Source: a virus. From it: a stretch of 9,047 nucleotides of DNA. The stretch is taken from the UHGV virus genome UHGV-0043901; one strand, 5' to 3'. The position numbers and the translations under genes are program-made. Within the stretch, counting starts at the first letter, position 1. Each line of letters starts with the position of its first letter. Below, in pieces: positions 50 through 7,441 of the stretch. Below the pieces are notes generated by a model. The model worked only from the letters and a program-made list of their open reading frames with translations. It did not search any database and was not told where the DNA came from.

Positions 50-1288
50 ATGAGCAGCGCAATTCATAGACTTAGCGACACTCTTTTACGAAAATTAAGC
101 GGATCACCAACCACAAAAAACGCCTTTTTTAATGACGGTGGCAATCTTAGCGTAAGACATTCCACCAGCGGCCTGTTAACCTGGTATTTCACTTACAGGG
201 CCGGAACTGGTAGGCAGATATCACCGGAACGTCTGAGGCTGGGCAATTATCCCGATCTGAGCCTGAAAGCTGCCAGGGAAAAAGCGGCACAGTGTCGCGC
301 CTGGCTGGCTGAGGGGAAAAATCCGCGCTATGAACTTAATCATGCTGTACAGGACGCGTTAGCCCCCGTGACGGTTAAGGAAGCGCTCACTTACTGGCTT
401 GAATCGTACGCAAAGGAAAAGCGCACTGACTACGAATCACTGAAAAGCCGGATCAATAAACACATAATTAGCCAGATTGGCGCTATGCCACTGGAAAAAT
501 GCGAGCTACGCCACTGGCTGGCCTGTTTTGACCAGCTTGCTAAGCGTAATCCGGTATCAGCCGGATTTTTGCTACAGGTATGCAAACAGGCGCTTAAGTA
601 CTGCCGAAAACGACGATACGCAATCAGCAACGTTCTTGATGATATGGTTGTCGGTGATGTTGGGAAAAAAGCAGAAATAAGCGAGCGCGTACTAACAAAC
701 AAGGAGCTTGGGGAATTACTACGCGCCCTGGATGAAAAAATTTACCCACCGTACTACAGCGCCATGATTCGCCTCCTGATTGTCTTCGGATGTCGTACCA
801 CTGAGCTAAGACGCTCTGAGGTCCAGGAATGGGATTTTAAAGAAATGCTCTGGACCGTGCCGAAAGAACACAGCAAAACGAAGGTAGCAATATTCAGGCC
901 AATACCGGAAGCGATCTTGCCGTTCTTAACGAAGCTGGTGGAGCAGAACAGGCACACGGGATTATTGCTCGGAGAACTGAAAGGGCAATCATCCGTATCA
1001 GAGTACGGAAGAACGGCACACAGACGCATTAATCAAGCCCCCTGGACGTTGCACGACATCCGGCACACGTTTACAACGATGCTGAACGATTTAGGCGTGG
1101 ATCCTCATGTAGTGGAGCAGCTTACCGCGCACCAGTTGCCAGGAATGCAACGAGTCTATAATCACTCCCGTTATCTTGATGCAAAACGTGACGCTCTTAA
1201 TCTATGGGTTGAGCGTCTCGAGCTTCTCCAGAACAATGATGAAAAAATCGTTGTTATGACCCCGCGAATTTACTCCCAAAATTCTTGA
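50..1288 (+). CDS. int: Tyrosine recombinase / site-specific integrase, P4-like family (N-terminal arm-binding DUF4102-type region plus C-terminal catalytic domain)
   Basis: 412-aa ORF; N-terminus LSDTLLRKL...LSVRHSTSGLLTWYFTYR...LRLGNYPDLSLKAAREKA matches the P4-integrase N-terminal pattern; C-terminus has HDIRHTF (His-x-x-Arg-His) and a downstream Tyr in RVYNHSRY consistent with tyrosine recombinase catalytic residues. Confidence 0.9.
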   Translation: MSSAIHRLSDTLLRKLSGSPTTKNAFFNDGGNLSVRHSTSGLLTWYFTYRAGTGRQISPERLRLGNYPDLSLKAAREKAAQCRAWLAEGKNPRYELNHAVQDALAPVTVKEALTYWLESYAKEKRTDYESLKSRINKHIISQIGAMPLEKCELRHWLACFDQLAKRNPVSAGFLLQVCKQALKYCRKRRYAISNVLDDMVVGDVGKKAEISERVLTNKELGELLRALDEKIYPPYYSAMIRLLIVFGCRTTELRRSEVQEWDFKEMLWTVPKEHSKTKVAIFRPIPEAILPFLTKLVEQNRHTGLLLGELKGQSSVSEYGRTAHRRINQAPWTLHDIRHTFTTMLNDLGVDPHVVEQLTAHQLPGMQRVYNHSRYLDAKRDALNLWVERLELLQNNDEKIVVMTPRIYSQNS

Positions 1289-1698: not shown

Positions 1699-1908
1699 AT
1701 GCGTGAAATAAATGAAGATCGTGTAATCCGCGAAAAAGAATGCAGAGAGCTAACAGGCGTTTGCCGCACAACTCGTTACGAGATGGAAAAGCAGGGCCGC
1801 TTCCCCTCACGTATCAGTCTCGGCGGTCGTTCTGTTGGCTGGGTTAAGTCTGAGGTTATGGAATGGGTTAAAAGCAGAAATCGTATTAATTCAGGTAAGG
1901 CAGCGTAA
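1699..1908 (+). CDS. alpA: AlpA-family phage transcriptional regulator (winged helix / MerR-like HTH)
   Basis: 69-aa product from the internal ATG at 1699; RELTGVCRTTRYEMEKQGRFPSRISLGGRSVGWVKSEVMEWV matches the AlpA signature (LTG-S-T-Y ... FP ... LGGRSV-W-SEV-EW). The ORF-track start at 1612 is a GTG with the Shine-Dalgarno abutting it, so the shorter form is preferred. Confidence 0.8.
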   Translation: MREINEDRVIREKECRELTGVCRTTRYEMEKQGRFPSRISLGGRSVGWVKSEVMEWVKSRNRINSGKAA

Positions 1909-2046
1909 AGGGGAGCATATGACACATAAAACAAAGGCGACCTGTGGCGGTCGCCAATGGGAAAACACTAAACATAAGCCCGAACATCATAGCGATTTGC
2001 TGGCTGGTGGGCAATGTGCTCAGTGTGCTGGCTTGCTGGTGGACTA

Positions 2047-2238
2047 TCAGCCTTTTGGTTCTATACCGCGCCGCTTTAGTTCTGTCCTGGCTAATTCTTT
2101 AAACCAGTTACCAAGGGTTAGACCGTCAGAAGTTGCCGCCTCATTTACTTGTTGGCGTAGCTCTTTACTGATTCTGATTTGGAAGGTTGGAGACCATCCC
2201 TCACCGCGTGGCGATTTATCGCGCTTTAATGTTGACAT
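2047..2238 (-). CDS. Arc/Mnt-like ribbon-helix-helix DNA-binding protein (putative repressor)
   Basis: 63 aa; PTFQIRISKELRQQVNEAATSDGLTLGNWFKELA aligns by eye with P22 Arc PQFNLRWPREVLDLVRKVAEENGRSVNSEIYQRV (beta-strand, helix, G-x-S/T-x-N, helix). AGGAG Shine-Dalgarno 12 nt upstream on the minus strand; a perfect inverted repeat directly abuts the start codon. Confidence 0.5.
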   Translation of the reverse strand: MSTLKRDKSPRGEGWSPTFQIRISKELRQQVNEAATSDGLTLGNWFKELARTELKRRGIEPKG

Positions 2239-2281
2239 GTACGTACGTAACTCCTATTATCATTGCTGTTACGTACGTACA
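2238..2281. promoter_or_regulatory. Operator-like perfect inverted repeat TGTACGTACGTAAC - 16 bp - GTTACGTACGTACA between divergent small genes
   Basis: Arms at 2238-2251 and 2268-2281 are exact reverse complements (14 of 14); each arm is itself built from alternating TACGTA palindromic units. Confidence 0.55.
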
Positions 2282-2370
2282 ATATCAGTAGGTACAGTAA
2301 AAAGCAAAGCCCCGCAAGTGTCGTTACCACTCGCAGGGCTTCTAACCAATAACGTAAAGGAGCTAAACGC

Positions 2371-2569
2371 TATGGCTGTAATACAGCATACCCCACACCT
2401 TGTACACACACAAACGGCCTTTGTGTGGCGTTTTCTGGCCCTGAGTGCCGGAGAATCTCAAATCATCCACGTAACCGCCTGGACGGAACGCGAAGCGCGT
2501 AGCCGTTGCCCGTCAGGTTGTGTTGCTGTATTTGCCGCTCGTATTCGTCAGGGGGTGTTCCATGCCTGA
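2371..2569 (+). CDS. Small protein, possibly Icd-like (host cell division inhibitor-like) family
   Basis: 65-aa reading from the internal ATG at 2371, preceded by AAAGGAG; motif FVWRFLAL...IHVTAWTEREARSRCPSGCVAVFAARI resembles the Icd-like small proteins common in enterobacterial islands (recalled pattern, not searched). The upstream part of the 244-aa track ORF is judged spurious. Confidence 0.4.
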
Positions 2570-2882
2570 CATGACCAATTACCAGTACCTGATTAATCCG
2601 CATTTTAAGTGTGATCATGATATTGCTAAGAAGGTTTATTCCGCTGCTGATGGGGCTACTGACAATATATCAATGGGTATTGCGTCAATTGGTAGCCTGA
2701 TGTGGCATGCGTCAGAAAATGAGGACTATGACGAAAAGGCCATGCGCATTGATATGGGTAATATCGGTTTGTTACTGGCAATGCTTGGGCAGTTTGATAT
2801 TTCGTTACGGTGCACCATTGAAAATGCCACAGATGCATTAAATGCCATAAAGAAAGCGAATACTGATTCAAATCGGGGATAA
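2562..2882 (+). CDS. Hypothetical protein (106 aa), no recognisable family
   Basis: ATG at 2562 with GGGGGTG Shine-Dalgarno, overlapping the stop of the upstream ORF; acidic, protein-like composition; same strand and tight spacing as neighbours. Confidence 0.5.
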   Translation: MPDMTNYQYLINPHFKCDHDIAKKVYSAADGATDNISMGIASIGSLMWHASENEDYDEKAMRIDMGNIGLLLAMLGQFDISLRCTIENATDALNAIKKANTDSNRG

Positions 2883-2888
2883 ATAATC

Positions 2889-3188
2889 ATGAGAACATAT
2901 TTATCTGGCTTGACTGCCAGCGGTTATGCACACCCCAAAATTATCCCCGGCGCTATTTATCTGGATAAGAACGGTAACAGAGTAACGGTAAAAGAACTGA
3001 TGTTTGACCGTGTTTATTTTATCCGTGATGGATATTCATTTCTTAGTTCGCTGAACGTGGAGATCTTTATTTGCAGATTCCGGCGGGAAATCCCGACTTC
3101 CAGAAATAACCATGTGTCATGTATGGATGTTGATAAAAAACTACAGGAACTAAAAAACATGATTGCCGCGTGGAGAGAGCAGAAATGA
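2889..3188 (+). CDS. Hypothetical protein (99 aa), translationally coupled to the primase gene
   Basis: Stop TGA at 3186-3188 overlaps the primase ATG at 3185-3187 (ATGA overlap). Confidence 0.5.
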   Translation: MRTYLSGLTASGYAHPKIIPGAIYLDKNGNRVTVKELMFDRVYFIRDGYSFLSSLNVEIFICRFRREIPTSRNNHVSCMDVDKKLQELKNMIAAWREQK

Positions 3189-5002
3189 AAAAAGCGCCAA
3201 ATTTAAAACACCAGCCACGTGACAAAATGACGGAAGTCATCATTTTTGCGGGTAGTGATGCGTGGGCACATGCGAAGCAGTGGCAGGAACAGGACGGGCG
3301 ACTGGCTGGCGACAGCGTGCCTCCTGTCTGGCTTGGAGAGCAACAACTTGCCGAACTGGACAACCTGCAAATCGTACCGGACGGACGCTATCGCGTGCGT
3401 CTCTACCAGGCGGGGTTATTGCGTCCGGGGCTTGTTAATACCATCGGGCAGAAACTGGCAGCGGCAGGTGTCAGGGATGCTGATTATTACCCTGAAGGAA
3501 TGCACAGCCAGAAACGGGAGAACTGGCGCGAATATCTGGAACGTGAACGGGCAGAGCAGGCGGAAAAGAAAAAGGTAGTTGAACTGCCTGTAAAGAAAAA
3601 AGAGCGGGTAAAAGACGATAACGCTTCATCACTGGCGCTTAACCAGATGGGAGCAAGTCAACGCGGCGAAGTTCTCCTGGCACATTATGGCGGTGAACTG
3701 GCGATTCATGCTGACTCTGACACTGTTCACTATTACAACGGCGTTGTATGGGAGCCAGTACAGGATAAAGAATTACAGCGAGCTATGGCACAGATTTTCA
3801 TTGATGCGGAGATCAGCTATTCGCAGAACGCCATTAAATCGGCGGTCGATACCATGAAGTTAAGTTTGCCTGTAATGGGGAATACAGCCCGTAACCTGAT
3901 TGGATTCAGTAACGGTGTTTTTGATACCCGGACAGGCGATTTTCGGGAGCATAACAAAAACGACTGGTTGTTAATTGCCAGTGAATTACCTTTCAGCCCA
4001 CCAGCAGAGGGGGAAACGCTGGCAACACATGCGCCGAATTTCTGGAAGTGGTTACGCCGTTCGGTGGCTGAGAATGACCGCAAGGCGGATCGCGTACTGG
4101 CTGCATTATTCATGGTGCTGGCGAACCGGTACGACTGGCAGTTATTCATTGAGGTAACAGGTCCAGGGGGAAGTGGTAAAAGCGTGATGGCGGAGATTTG
4201 CACCATGCTGGCGGGTAAGGCCAACACAGTATCGGCAAGCATGAAGGCGCTGGAAGATGCAAGGGAACGCGCGTTAGTGGTTGGCTTTTCGCTGATTATC
4301 ATGCCGGATATGACCCGCTACGCTGGTGATGGGGCAGGGATTAAGGCTATTACAGGCGGTGACAAGGTGGCAATTGACCCGAAACACAAAGCCCCCTACT
4401 CAACGCGTATTCCGGCAGTAGTGCTGGCGGTTAACAATAACGCCATGTCATTCAGTGACCGCAGCGGGGGGATCTCACGTCGTCGGGTGATATTCAATTT
4501 TTCGGAAGTTGTACCGGAGAACGAACGCGATCCAATGCTGGCGGAAAAAATAGAAGGTGAGCTGGCGGTAGTGATTCGCCATCTGCTTACACGGTTTGCT
4601 GACCAGGACGAAGCCAGACGCCTGTTATATGAGCAGCAGAAATCTGAAGAAGCACTGGCGATAAAGCGAGAGGGGGATTCGCTGGTGGACTTCTGCGGCT
4701 ATCTCATGGCGTCGGTAATGTGTGATGGTCTGTTAGTGGGTAATGCTGAAATTGTGCCATTCAGCCCACGCAGGTATCTCTATCATGCCTATCTGGCTTA
4801 TATGAGGGCACATGGGTTTGGTAAACCTGTAACACTGACGCGCTTCGGTAAAGATATGCCGGGGGCAATGGCGGAATATGGCAGGGAGTATATGAAACGG
4901 AAAACGAAGCACGGTTTTCGTTCAAACGTGACACTGACGGAGGAATCAGAAGACTGGATGCCATCATGTGTATCGGTCACTAATGACGATAGTAAAAATT
5001 AA
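3185..5002 (+). CDS. Replication initiator: P4-alpha / D5-type primase-helicase with P-loop NTPase (SF3-like helicase) domain
   Basis: About 605 aa from ATG 3185 (GGAGAG Shine-Dalgarno 7 nt upstream; the track start at 3170 is in frame). Walker A GPGGSGKS encoded at 4160-4183; downstream hydrophobic strand plus acidic residues (LIIMPDM) consistent with Walker B; lies immediately upstream of an iteron array. Confidence 0.88.
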   Translation: MKKAPNLKHQPRDKMTEVIIFAGSDAWAHAKQWQEQDGRLAGDSVPPVWLGEQQLAELDNLQIVPDGRYRVRLYQAGLLRPGLVNTIGQKLAAAGVRDADYYPEGMHSQKRENWREYLERERAEQAEKKKVVELPVKKKERVKDDNASSLALNQMGASQRGEVLLAHYGGELAIHADSDTVHYYNGVVWEPVQDKELQRAMAQIFIDAEISYSQNAIKSAVDTMKLSLPVMGNTARNLIGFSNGVFDTRTGDFREHNKNDWLLIASELPFSPPAEGETLATHAPNFWKWLRRSVAENDRKADRVLAALFMVLANRYDWQLFIEVTGPGGSGKSVMAEICTMLAGKANTVSASMKALEDARERALVVGFSLIIMPDMTRYAGDGAGIKAITGGDKVAIDPKHKAPYSTRIPAVVLAVNNNAMSFSDRSGGISRRRVIFNFSEVVPENERDPMLAEKIEGELAVVIRHLLTRFADQDEARRLLYEQQKSEEALAIKREGDSLVDFCGYLMASVMCDGLLVGNAEIVPFSPRRYLYHAYLAYMRAHGFGKPVTLTRFGKDMPGAMAEYGREYMKRKTKHGFRSNVTLTEESEDWMPSCVSVTNDDSKN

Positions 5003-5013
5003 ACTTATGGAAT

Positions 5014-5240
5014 AACTGTTCACCACTGTTCACCCTGTCATAAATATCTTTTATATCAGTATATTATAGGGTGAACAGTTATTTATGAACTGTTCACCAA
5101 ACTATTCACTGTTCACCTTTTTGATTGTTTATTGAGCTTCAAGGGTGAACAGTGGTGAATAGTTGGTGAATAGTTTTTGTGAAACTGTTCACCCCTTAAC
5201 ATTATGAATTAAAAGATAAAATATCAAAAGGTGAACAGGT
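5014..5240. repeat. Origin of replication: iteron array of 9-mer CTGTTCACC / GGTGAACAG in both orientations with AT-rich spacers
   Basis: Perfect copies on plus strand at 5016, 5026, 5090, 5109, 5185; reverse-complement copies at 5070, 5144, 5230; degenerate GGTGAATAG at 5154 and 5165; 11-bp palindromic pair GGTGAACAGTT-7bp-AACTGTTCACC at 5070-5098; interspersed AT-rich stretches (5041-5068). Confidence 0.8.
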
Positions 5241-5942: not shown

Positions 5943-5950
5943 ACGCACAG

Positions 5951-5973
5951 GCCGGAGAAAATCCGGCTTTTTG
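5951..5973 (+). terminator. Rho-independent terminator (GCCGGA-GAAAA-TCCGGC plus T5)
   Basis: 6-bp GC-rich stem with 5-nt loop and TTTTT tail, 9 nt after the ssb stop. Confidence 0.7.
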
Positions 5974-5984
5974 TATCCAAAAAA

Positions 5985-6021
5985 AGCCCGATAAGTACAG
6001 GAGGAAGCTTATCGGGCTTTT
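5985..6021. terminator. Second hairpin (AGCCCGATAAG - 12 nt loop - CTTATCGGGCT) flanked by an A-run upstream and T-run downstream; possible bidirectional terminator
   Basis: 11-bp perfect stem at 5985-5995 / 6008-6018, A6 at 5979-5984 and TTTT at 6018-6021. Confidence 0.4.
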
Positions 6022-6095
6022 GCTTACGAGGTTAACAGCATGGTGACTACTGTTGCTGTAAATCATTTCATAATTTGCAACGTAACTCAATTTTA

Positions 6096-6179: not shown

Positions 6180-6386
6180 ATGGCAGAAGAGAAAAAAGGC
6201 GGTGTTTCGGTGTACATAAGCCCCGAAATCGTGGAGGTGCTCAAGCAGCGCCACAAAAAAAACTATGAGGCTGGCGTGGCGGCTGGACTGGATCCGCTGA
6301 TGACGCCGGAGCCGTCGATAGGTTCACTTGTGCGCTCTTATTTACTTGCGGCGCTTGGGATGCATAAAAATTATGGGGGTGAATAA
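6180..6386 (+). CDS. Small protein (68 aa), first gene of the head operon; possibly ribbon-helix-helix-like
   Basis: Strong Shine-Dalgarno AAGAGGA; stop TAA overlaps the capsid ATG (TAATG at 6384-6388); pattern VSVYISPEIVEVLKQ then helices is compatible with a ribbon-helix-helix fold, but this is weak. Confidence 0.5.
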   Translation: MAEEKKGGVSVYISPEIVEVLKQRHKKNYEAGVAAGLDPLMTPEPSIGSLVRSYLLAALGMHKNYGGE

Positions 6387-7441
6387 TGGCAGGCAAAGCA
6401 ACGGCACTTAACACTAACCAGCTTTTTGCGTACCTGAATCGCGGGGATATTGCGGAATTTAAATTCAGTCCGCTGTTTACCACGCTGTTTTTCCCGAACG
6501 TGGCGACATTCAACACCCAAAACATCATGCTGGACACCCTGGACATTGAAGAGGTTACGATGTCGGCGTTTTGTTCGCCTATGGTGGGTAGTCAGGTCCA
6601 GCGCGATAAAGGGTACGAAACCAGCACGATTAAACCTGGATACATGAAGCCGAAGCACGAAATCGATCCAACGAAAACCATCATGCGTATGGCTGGAGAA
6701 GATCCGGCACAGCTTAATGACCCAACCTATCGCCGTATGCGCCTGATTACTGGCAACATGCGCCGCCAGATAAACGCGATTAAAGCGCGCGTGGAATGGC
6801 TGGCGGTGAATGCGGTAACGACCGGAAAAAACATCATTGAGGGCGAAGGCATAGAACGCTATGAAATCGACTGGAAGATACCGGAAAAAAACATCATAGA
6901 GCAGGCCAAAGGCCGTAAATGGTCCGAGCAGGACAAAGAAACCCACGATCCAATCTATGATATCGAGCTTTATGCGGATCAAGCAGGTTGCCCCGCCAAC
7001 GTCATGATCATGGGCGCTGAGGTATGGCGAACGTTACGCAGCTTTAAAAAATTCCGCGAACTGTACGATCTTTCCCGTGGTTCAGAGTCCGCCGCCGAAC
7101 TGGCCTGTAAAAACCTGGGCGAAGTGGTGAGCTTTAAAGGCTATCTGGGCGATATTGCCCTTATCGTCTATTCCGGCAAATACACTGACAGCGACGGCAC
7201 AGAAAAATATTTCCTTGAGCCTGATTTGCTTGTCCTGGGCAACACCAACAATAAAGGGCTGGTGGCCTATGGTGCGATTATGGATCAGGACGCAGTAAGA
7301 ACGGGCGCAACGCAAAACATGTTTTACCCGAAAAACTGGATTGAGGACGGCGATCCGGCGATTGAGTACGTGCAGACGCACAGCGCACCGCAGCCGGTTC
7401 CGGCAGATATTCGCAAATTTGTTACCGTCAAAATTGGTTAA
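6386..7441 (+). CDS. Major capsid protein, lambda gpE family
   Basis: 351 aa versus 341 aa for lambda gpE, with blocks matching the recalled gpE sequence: FKFSPLFTTLFF (gpE FKFDPLFLRLFF), SPMVGSQV (SPIVSGEV), PGYMKPKHEIDP (PGYVKPKHEVNP), EDPAQLNDPTYRRMR (EDPQNLADPAYRRRR), WSEQDKETHDP (WSKRDKSTYDP), YPKNWIEDGDPA (YPKNWVTTGDPA). GGGGGTG Shine-Dalgarno. Confidence 0.9.
   Translation: MAGKATALNTNQLFAYLNRGDIAEFKFSPLFTTLFFPNVATFNTQNIMLDTLDIEEVTMSAFCSPMVGSQVQRDKGYETSTIKPGYMKPKHEIDPTKTIMRMAGEDPAQLNDPTYRRMRLITGNMRRQINAIKARVEWLAVNAVTTGKNIIEGEGIERYEIDWKIPEKNIIEQAKGRKWSEQDKETHDPIYDIELYADQAGCPANVMIMGAEVWRTLRSFKKFRELYDLSRGSESAAELACKNLGEVVSFKGYLGDIALIVYSGKYTDSDGTEKYFLEPDLLVLGNTNNKGLVAYGAIMDQDAVRTGATQNMFYPKNWIEDGDPAIEYVQTHSAPQPVPADIRKFVTVKIG

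Follow-up and report, generated by a model that had tools for sequence, protein, structure and literature searches.

A predicted Arc/Mnt-style immunity switch in a PICI-type phage satellite: a ribbon-helix-helix gene, paired palindromic sites and a putative antisense RNA

The locus

The locus described here lies within a 9,047-nt stretch of the virus genome UHGV-0043901 (the whole stretch is called the window), which, judged from its genes, is one end of a phage satellite of the phage-inducible chromosomal island (PICI) type. Between positions 2047 and 2569, a gene for a 63-aa, Arc-like ribbon-helix-helix (RHH) protein (2047-2238, minus strand) diverges from an open reading frame (ORF) of 65 aa (2372-2569, plus strand; Shine-Dalgarno sequence GGAG at 2359-2362) that resembles the Icd protein of phage P1 and is the first gene of a rightward operon. 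The RHH gene is the only minus-strand gene in this stretch. A sequence-only reading of the same DNA had taken the two genes, with an inverted repeat between them, for the element's switch, built on an Arc-type repressor, or alternatively for a toxin/antitoxin-like pair. The switch is well supported by anatomy and comparison: a near-consensus promoter is bracketed by palindromic sites, the layout is conserved in related islands, the operator co-varies with the protein, and the protein has a predicted Arc-like fold. The reading favored here, with a probability of about 0.6, is that the region is an Arc/Mnt-style immunity-repressor switch of the satellite, in which the RHH protein and its operators would act together with an antisense RNA.

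Predicted operators and promoters, and the operon they would control

The control region contains two inverted-repeat arms, at 2238-2251 (TGTACGTACGTAAC) and 2268-2281 (GTTACGTACGTACA), which are 14 nt each, 100% complementary, and separated by a 16-nt spacer, as the sequence-only reading had described them. Each arm holds the 10-bp palindrome TACGTACGTA (2240-2249 and 2270-2279), and the "inverted repeat" is therefore more fittingly seen as a pair of palindromic sites whose centres are 30 bp from each other. These are the predicted operators O1 (2238-2251) and O2 (2268-2281); no further copy of the operator word is present elsewhere in the window. The repeat had also been placed exactly between the two genes. 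It does lie between them, but not midway: it begins with the A of the RHH start codon and stops 90 nt upstream of the icd ATG. In the related locus L057 the two sites keep the palindromic core, while their flanks run in the same direction instead of being inverted.

The operators coincide with a predicted rightward promoter, P_R (2232-2260, plus strand), which consists of TTGACA at 2232-2237, a 17-nt spacer and TATTAT at 2255-2260, with a start at about 2267. In a promoter scan P_R matches 11 of the 12 σ70 consensus positions. Its -35 element is complementary to codons 1-2 of the RHH gene and to the first base of codon 3. O1 fills the spacer between the -35 and -10 elements and O2 covers the predicted start near 2267, so that the operators bracket the -10 element. 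The Shine-Dalgarno sequence of the RHH gene (AGGAG, 2255-2251) is flanked by the two operators, which means that the promoter of this gene has to be located to the right of O2, facing P_R. A candidate for this weak leftward promoter, P_L (2279-2307, minus strand), has TTGCTT at 2307-2302, a 17-nt spacer and TATTGT at 2284-2279; its start, at about 2272, would fall within O2, which thus covers the predicted starts of both divergent promoters. P_L was read directly from the sequence and is below the promoter-scan threshold; a similar TTGnnn lies 17-18 nt upstream of a TAnnGT in several class-A relatives.

The genes downstream of P_R are tightly packed. The icd stop codon overlaps the ATG of the next ORF (2562-2882; overlap at 2562-2569), which is followed by a gene for a DUF4222 protein (2889-3188) and a gene for a D5/DUF5906 primase-helicase (3170-5002), whose start overlaps the DUF4222 end. 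Therefore, P_R can be taken as the promoter of the replication operon and not of icd alone. The earlier proposal that an Arc repressor controls a division-inhibitor-like effector stands as far as the switch is concerned, but the controlled unit is the operon of icd, the ORF 2562-2882, the DUF4222 gene and the primase gene.

The RHH gene and protein

The minus-strand ORF at 2047-2238 is judged to be real because, in pairwise codon comparisons with homologues that are 65-79% identical (in Edwardsiella, Salmonella, Citrobacter and Morganella), synonymous differences in its frame exceed non-synonymous ones (29 v 8, 26 v 16, and others). The pattern is reversed in a 244-codon plus-strand ORF (1835-2569) that shares its frame with icd and extends, in antisense, across the whole RHH gene and the intergenic region. 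By its substitution pattern this ORF is a shadow frame of the RHH gene, which explains the suspected transcription of 2047-2238 from the plus strand only. The RHH gene, whose neighbours are alpA and the icd-like gene, is monocistronic and has its own intrinsic terminator (1926-1955, minus strand; stem 1955-1936, then TTTGTTTTAT), which was found by a terminator scan and is conserved in the flank of the related loci L001 and L002.

In an AlphaFold2 (AF2) model of the protein, a disordered tail (residues 1-17) precedes the extended segment PTFQIRI (residues 17-23, the predicted recognition strand) and two helices (25-37 and 42-56); the predicted local distance difference test (pLDDT) score is 84-91 over residues 21-60. 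The PTFQIRI strand is unformed in this model of a single chain, in line with strand pairing that takes place only in the dimer, and the β-α-α topology of the RHH superfamily, over about 45 residues, is present. P22 Arc heads the Foldseek matches (1myl, template-modelling (TM) score 0.83, root-mean-square deviation 1.3 Å, E 0.4; also 1par, 1b28 and 1bdv) and is followed by CopG, AmrZ, PutA, ParG and RHH antitoxins; the top matches are all RHH proteins. A family profile aligns over Arc residues 2-49, with PTFQIRI on Arc PQFNLRW (E 0.26), and PHROG 228, "Arc-like repressor", matches at E 2e-4. No Pfam RHH family matches the 63-aa protein above threshold. No single score is strong, which is attributed to the shortness of the protein, but all of them mutually agree. 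The minus-strand RHH gene of the sequence-only reading is upheld by the codon test, the PHROG match and the model for which Arc is the best match.

An exchangeable cassette: a probable repressor and its operators

About 40 related loci (designated by L numbers) were gathered by exact-protein look-up, from phage records and IMG/VR, and by a DNA pattern scan; a search of species-representative genomes had given only 3 loci, hence the exact-protein look-ups and the pattern scan. All of the loci share the order int, (accessory genes), alpA, a small minus-strand gene and a first small plus-strand gene, with the primase gene further on. This layout is found in Escherichia coli, Salmonella, Edwardsiella, Morganella, Klebsiella and Pasteurella and on IMG/VR contigs. 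In about 20 related islands, from E. coli to Pasteurella, the layout is kept and a cassette of ~250 bp is swapped, each version having a different RHH gene and different operators. When the window is compared by blastn with L001, L002, L003, L015, L019 and L023, the flanks are 85-98% identical, and no similarity is found from about 2048-2068 to about 2300. By these borders the exchangeable cassette, at about 2048-2300, comprises the RHH gene, the operators and the promoters. Its left border corresponds to the last RHH codons (a shared GIEPKG end) and its right border to a hairpin and the motif TCTAACCA that follows it; at exactly this junction, L040 and L041 have the cassette of the window joined to a different type of icd.

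All related cassettes have a TTGACA-like -35 element and a TAnnnT -10 element with an operator between them, and they can be divided into two classes. In class 1, the RHH protein starts MST or VST atop the TTGACA -35 element, one operator lies between -35 and -10, and another follows immediately downstream. Among its members are the window, L003, L019/L023, L025 (Pasteurella Pmp8), L026 (Klebsiella), L028 (Edwardsiella), L032 (Salmonella), L036 (Morganella), L037, L047, L051, L052, L057 and L070. In class 2 (DUF3950 or YlcI-YnfO-like; L002, L005, L018, L020, L067 and others), the repressor gene lies about 65 bp further left, and two or three palindromes surround the same kind of promoter.

The operator word changes with the recognition strand. 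Proteins with PTFQIRI occur with the core GTACGTAC in 6 cassettes of different genera (the full TACGTACGT in 5 of them and GTACGTACC in L037), in which the spacers have diverged except for the -10 element. Other strands go with other words: PAFQ[IV]RI with GTGTGTACCTATT or AATAGGTACACAC (3 cassettes), PMLPIRI with CATATGCCTAT, PQYQMRL with GGTATATACC or GGTAATTACC, DQYQIRL with two copies of TTGTAATTACAA, and RFSVQLRL with two copies of TGACAWTGTATACC. That the sites keep their position while protein and operator word co-vary is the chief reason for predicting that they are bound by the RHH protein, which would thereby repress P_R.

Some relatives contain additional genes in this region. The E. 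coli island L015 has two full tandem cassettes (1560-1641 and 2427-2508), and in each of them a separate RHH gene, operators and an antisense-RNA module are present. A variable second minus-strand gene is found downstream of the RHH gene in many relatives (753-1106 in L040; 1929-2183 in L023; also in L015, L019 and L020). It encodes a SWIM zinc finger protein, a zf-FCS-like protein or one of several proteins without an assignment; the window lacks such a gene.

In other relatives (L004 and L006-L014), which have another variant of icd, the same slot directly upstream of icd is occupied by isrK and the C4 antisense RNA, an arrangement that corresponds to the annotated P1 immI order Oc4, c4, icd, ant. 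Rfam models, with L006 as the positive control (isrK 61.6 bits, C4 77.7 bits), give no match in the window for C4 or CI (RF01695, RF01394), isrK or sar, nor any match to them at E up to 10 on 2225-2420; the best permissive match there, R1162 antisense at E 0.16, is not credible. The leader also has no blastn match to phage genomes. Since the slot holds isrK/C4 in siblings and the window has neither, the protein-operator cassette replaces an RNA immunity module before the same gene. C4 and isrK have been called "immunity RNAs" in some Gram-negative PICIs (PMC10111431).

A predicted antisense RNA over the icd start

To the right of the operators, a conserved structured RNA on the minus strand appears, from sequence comparison, to provide a second layer of control, one that the sequence-only reading had missed. 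The predicted RNA (about 2296-2379, minus strand; ~83 nt) consists of stem-loop SL1 (2377-2344), a linker (UUGGUUAGA), stem-loop SL2 (2342-2306) and a U-rich tail (2305-2296). SL2 and the tail form an intrinsic terminator in the terminator scan; the tail is TTTGCTTTTT in the window and TTTGCTTTTTTTG in Pmp8. The loop of SL1 carries an anti-Shine-Dalgarno CUCC, and the RNA could pair without mismatch with the start codon and Shine-Dalgarno sequence of icd; therefore, it is predicted to be a cis-antisense RNA. Its candidate promoter (2385-2413, minus strand) has the -10 element TATGCT at 2390-2385, within icd codons 5-7, and a weak -35 element, TTGTGT, at 2413-2408. The plus-strand motif TCTAACCA (2341-2348), at which cassettes recombine, closes SL1 on the minus strand. 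The linker UUGGUUAGA (2341-2349), the complement of TCTAACCAA, is near-invariant from E. coli to Pasteurella and in unrelated phages and, with the anti-start-codon, closes SL1.

The hairpin at 2306-2342 is kept beside wholly different left cassettes from E. coli to Pasteurella, and the region is judged to be non-coding because L001 has no open frame corresponding to that of the window. A covariance model (R1), built from seven relatives, matches every hairpin-type locus at full length on the antisense strand (49.6 bits in the window at 2297-2379, E 4e-10; 34.6 bits in Pasteurella) and gives no match in C4-type loci or in P1. A MAFFT alignment (A3) mis-registers SL1, and the alignment was rebuilt through the model. 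In the model-based alignment, 94.2% of cells are paired, as compared with a mean of 80.4% after shuffling and 35-46% in slid controls. The predicted RNA matches no Rfam family.

The module is also seen outside the islands. In the IMG/VR phage contigs L044, L045, L064, L056, L048 and L054, the hairpin, TCTAACCA, a Shine-Dalgarno sequence and ATGGCT lie between co-directional genes, upstream of unrelated small Cys-rich proteins (MADENCSSC...). R1 scores 33-42 bits there, on the antisense strand, and the antisense -10 element is TACAAT or TATAAT in all of them except L054.

The Icd-like gene

The claim that the plus-strand ORF has an Icd-like motif is borne out: the protein belongs to NCBIfam NF033153 (64.3 bits, cut-off 25), shares 41% identity over 46 residues with Icd of phage P1 (pairwise E 2e-7), and contains the conserved motif F[VI]WRF ... 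TE[RE]EAR ... F.ARIRQ. Its start, which had been put at 2371, is at 2372. A tblastn search of the phages with this protein gave a single satellite-like record and did not find P1 Icd, which was consequently compared pairwise. Division-inhibitor activity refers to P1 Icd only and comes from the annotation of its record.

Some database entries (P0002) translate the leader as an N-terminal extension of Icd. Such an extension, through the plus-strand frame that crosses the hairpin, is ruled out by a stop codon and frame shift at that place in L001. In "ash family" proteins (P0039, P0046), whose C-terminal part is Icd-like, the match to PF10554 (Phage_ASH) is confined to the N-terminal extension (residues 1-56); in L006 the DNA of this extension (2360-2447) is the C4 RNA gene, and therefore part of the family model may describe a translated non-coding RNA. 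Within the icd gene of the window, codons 12-21 (2407-2427, plus strand) form a terminator-like hairpin, CACACAAA-CGGCC-TTTGTGTG, followed by GCGTTTTCT. This hairpin is kept in E. coli icd variants encoding HTQTAFVWRF and is lacking in icd of the L002 and L028 types; it may act as an attenuator that is sensitive to translation.

The proposed switch

From these features, the RHH protein and the two operators on the main promoter probably keep the replication genes off. RHH dimers, or higher oligomers, would bind both TACGTACGTA operators flanking the P_R -10 element and shut P_R, and hence expression of the icd-like gene, the ORF, the DUF4222 gene and the primase gene, leaving the island quiescent. 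Because O2 covers the start of the weak P_L, the repressor would also limit its own synthesis, and because P_R and P_L face each other, simultaneous occupancy of the two promoters should be impossible. As a second lock, the ~83-nt RNA, running from icd codons 5-7 to the hairpin at 2342-2306, may block translation of icd; its structure and conservation are seen in the comparisons, and its transcription and effect are predicted. Since the downstream genes are translationally coupled, this block would be polar on the replication genes, as that of C4 RNA is on icd-ant in P1. Swapping of the ~250-bp cassette by recombination, for other specificities or for the isrK/C4 module, is seen in the comparison of islands and would create different immunity types.

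Two routes to induction can be envisaged, both speculative. The hairpin that follows alpA has no T-tract on the plus strand and is hence not a terminator, so rightward transcription could enter the RHH gene in antisense; induction would then probably proceed through AlpA-driven transcription. Alternatively, a helper-phage factor, an anti-repressor, may act on the RHH protein.

Weighing the evidence

Several points count against the proposed switch. All of its functional claims are drawn from sequence. Taken one by one, the fold match (Foldseek E 0.4) and the profile match (E 0.26) to Arc are non-significant, P_L is weak and loosely conserved at best, and the alignment used for the pair counts (A5) was fitted to the model. 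The most serious residual doubt is the antisense promoter: its -35 element is poor, and its -10 element lies inside coding sequence, so that conservation could be partly a protein constraint; in the phage contigs the -10 element overlaps a Cys codon. Finally, published work on EcCICFT073 describes AlpA as an activator needed for induction and does not mention a repressor, and in related islands no regulator other than AlpA has been established by experiment.

Of the competing explanations, the one that survives best concerns the second lock alone. The hairpin at 2306-2342 might be only a protective minus-strand terminator or a recombination junction, with no discrete antisense RNA arising from within icd. 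The poor -35 element, the absence from this site of any promoter passing the scan threshold, the position of the -10 element in coding sequence and the exchange of cassettes exactly at TCTAACCA all suit this explanation, which is nevertheless rather unlikely. The antisense -10 element (TAnnnT, at positions 14-19 of the plus-strand ORF or 8-13 in ORFs two codons shorter) keeps its T, its A and its last T without change in all 18 aligned loci. A scripted survey of 20 distinct first genes located it at the corresponding position in 19; for the 20th, L037, the start had been mis-picked, and TACACT is present at its true start. It is kept although the encoded residues differ (QH, NH, EH, QS, NY, NR, NC) and the first genes are unrelated, and loci without the hairpin, namely those with C4-type icd genes and P1 icd, also lack the hexamer. 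Changes on both sides are seen in 19 of 26 pairs, in an alignment fitted to the model, and these include 10 of the 13 pairs of the 5' stem-loop SL1, which lies upstream of the terminator. Moreover, the full-length model matches the antisense strand only, and in the phage contigs the module lies between co-directional genes, where nothing on the minus strand needs insulation, so that a role limited to insulating the repressor gene is disfavored.

The toxin/antitoxin alternative of the sequence-only reading fares worse. In this explanation the RHH protein would be an orphan or accessory antitoxin-like autoregulator of the HicB or YlcI/YnfO type, the repeat being there solely to regulate the RHH gene itself, or would form a toxin/antitoxin-like pair with the Icd-like protein, and would not be a master switch. 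Databases do name homologues "HicB family antitoxin", and the cassette proteins of L001 and L002 are named YlcI/YnfO in RefSeq by the Prokaryotic Genome Annotation Pipeline (PGAP). The RHH protein itself has weak matches to HicB, DUF6290 and YlcI_YnfO, P1 Icd is annotated as a division inhibitor, so that the neighbour could be toxic, and a published comparison lists these genes as accessory or toxin/antitoxin genes (PMC13612085). However, all scores for antitoxin families are under the curated cut-offs: HicB PF05534 reaches 18.1 bits against a gathering cut-off of 21, over residues 18-46 (the RHH part) only, and YlcI/YnfO NF041551 reaches 19.7 bits against 30. The protein consists of the RHH domain only, without the N-terminal domain of HicB. 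No co-transcribed toxin accompanies the monocistronic RHH gene, since family searches found neither HicA nor another toxin family beside it or in relatives, including among the relatives' variable second genes. In addition, the operators overlap a near-consensus promoter that points to the replication operon, away from the RHH gene, and sibling islands hold an RNA immunity system in the same slot. A toxin/antitoxin or antitoxin-like role is thus improbable.

Slightly less probable again is that the hairpin and the motif CUUCUAACCA act in the plus-strand leader RNA, as a boxA-like Nus site, an RNase processing site or an icd attenuator. The motif does form part of the operon's 5' leader, where a C/A-rich stretch comes after it, and it lies between co-directional genes in the phage contigs; on the plus strand it has what we take to be a faint likeness to rrn boxA. 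The fold, however, belongs to the other strand. The 83-nt minus-strand RNA (2378-2296) has a predicted energy of -37.5 kcal/mol (z -6.1, with 0 of 200 shuffles as good), as compared with -19.9 (z -0.9), no better than shuffled, for the plus strand, and the minus strand is the more stable in 19/19 and 17/19 related-sequence comparisons. Within the terminator stem, standard pairs fill 172 of 179 cells on the minus strand (34 of them G-U) and 139 of 179 on the plus strand (1 G-U); 33 of the 179 cells are non-standard on the plus strand, mostly A-C/C-A, and standard on the minus strand. There is also no U-tract after the hairpin on the plus strand. This strand asymmetry was the reason for rejecting the plus-strand leader elements that were considered as candidates for the hairpin (C4-like, RNase P substrate, attenuator).

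Lastly, the suggestion that the repeat is a functionless chance product of a (TACG)n-like low-complexity run, which draws on its internally repetitive arms and on self-complementary GTAC/TACGTA words that inflate the perfection of the inverted repeat, is hardly credible and already contradicted by the comparative data: as the sequence-only reading had supposed, such a palindrome is unlikely by chance (a perfect inverted repeat of at least 14 nt with a spacer of at most 40 nt arises in 1 of 300 dinucleotide-preserving shuffles of the window), its core is kept beside homologous RHH genes in five other genera as the spacer diverges, and analogous paired palindromes occur at the same promoter positions in about 20 unrelated cassettes.

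The island setting

The order of genes and features in the window, all in one direction except for the RHH gene, is int, alpA, RHH, icd-like, DUF4222, primase, origin iterons, capsid and terS. A tyrosine integrase (50-1288, plus strand) is assigned by profile and ORF, and AlpA (1699-1908, plus strand) by Pfam Phage_AlpA (64.5 bits); the ORF at 2562-2882 (plus strand) comes from the ORF list, and the DUF4222 protein and the primase-helicase, both on the plus strand, are profile assignments. Directly after the primase gene lies a cluster of iterons (5005-5240), with at least 10 copies of ACTGTTCACC / GGTGAACAGT and variants of the form GTGAATAGT in both orientations, which is probably the island's iteron-type replication origin. 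An Rfam match in the window to "MIR1508" is this iteron repeat. The SSB gene comes next, and directly 3' of it two successive GC-rich hairpins with T-tracts (5949-6023, plus strand) look like a double terminator between the replication and packaging modules; an Rfam match to "ncr1175" (E 0.098) is a terminator look-alike. The major head protein (6386-7441, plus strand) is followed by a head decoration protein and a small terminase gene, the latter name being the one given by PGAP in relatives.

This layout, with int, alpA, primase and iteron origin, and packaging genes in one direction, is that of Gram-negative PICIs and capsid-forming PICI-like elements, for which a size of about 10-15 kb also applies; the window ends inside the element. 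Near-identical flanks adjoin cspD/yljB in E. coli, and the island flanks match 1295 of 5426 complete E. coli genomes. Helper-phage induction and transfer are known from the literature for EcCICFT073 and EcCIEDL933.

Significance

The global repressor of Gram-negative PICIs has been stated to be "unclear" (PMC6092414), and recent comparative papers file the genes discussed here as "HicB antitoxin", "YlcI/YnfO" or "Icd" accessory genes (PMC13612085). Literature searches on an RHH repressor or an antisense RNA in PICIs gave nothing relevant. As far as the searchable literature and Rfam go, two things are new: the identification of the RHH gene and its operators as an exchangeable immunity cassette that, in Gram-negative PICI-type satellites, takes the position of C4/isrK, and a conserved antisense RNA family. 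If the cassette is a repressor, it would explain the silence of very common islands, allow a scheme of immunity typing by operator word, and give a direct experimental handle on induction. The cassettes would also be a natural set of short, orthogonal repressor-operator pairs, and the antisense RNA is a compact, testable candidate for a new RNA family.

A broader and more tentative conjecture, which we hold to be somewhat less probable than its opposite, is that RHH/operator cassettes are the missing master repressors of many Gram-negative and capsid-forming PICIs, with at least about 15 specificities that alternate with isrK/C4. They would be backed by a widespread cis-antisense RNA family (R1) that gates the first gene of the replication operon and is also used by unrelated phages, and helper phages or AlpA read-through would defeat this double lock.

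Comparison with known systems

The RHH protein shares its fold with RHH antitoxins (the HicB C-terminal domain, MazE, CopA, AtaR) and with YlcI/YnfO, and autoregulation through palindromes, predicted here, would be a further likeness. Unlike these antitoxins, it has neither a toxin partner nor a toxin-neutralising extension, and its scores are below their cut-offs.

Among satellites, the Stl/Rpr repressors of Gram-positive PICIs (the Staphylococcus aureus pathogenicity islands, SaPIs) are likewise encoded by a divergent gene beside the excision/replication promoter and are highly variable between islands (PMC6092414). However, Stl proteins are large and contain a helix-turn-helix, in contrast to the 63-aa RHH protein; their derepression by helper-phage proteins has been shown; and Gram-negative PICIs, unlike the Gram-positive ones, additionally need AlpA. 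The CI RNA of the P4 type and the C4-isrK of PICIs occupy the same island position, between the alpA/accessory zone and the replication genes, and have the same silencing task (PMC10111431). P4-type CI works by RNA-mediated premature termination, whereas repression in the window is predicted to occur at initiation, by a protein on an operator.

Phage P1 immI has the order Oc4, c4, icd, ant. The first gene of the window's rightward operon is a true homologue of P1 icd (41% identity at the protein level), and in P1, as predicted for the window, expression of the operon depends on translation of this gene. Repression at the RNA level is aimed at the icd ribosome-binding site in P1, as it is predicted to be here. 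The trans-acting C4 of P1 is absent from the window, which has the protein cassette and the predicted cis-antisense RNA instead, while siblings such as L006 keep isrK and C4. The kilA-repL region of P1 offers another likeness: an annotated antisense promoter (PaskilA/P53as) lies just inside the 5' end of the first gene of the replication operon.

In phage P22, the Pant and Pmnt promoters have an overlapping geometry. The immI region of P22 contains a pair of repressor proteins, Mnt and Arc, plus the sar antisense RNA, which controls ant (PMC2629481). The window resembles it in having a small RHH repressor, with Arc as the best fold match, predicted palindromic operators in a strong promoter that faces a weak candidate promoter of the repressor gene, and a short putative cis-antisense RNA over a translation start. 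It differs in that a single repressor gene is present, the predicted RNA has no detectable sequence relationship to sar (no Rfam match), and two palindromes 30 bp apart replace the one 21-bp operator of Arc. An RHH repressor that acts on palindromic operators is a textbook element, and so is an antisense RNA that covers a ribosome-binding site (P22 immI, P1). Here, however, they are predicted to control an Icd-like gene and the replication operon rather than an antirepressor, and to do so in a satellite island rather than a phage.

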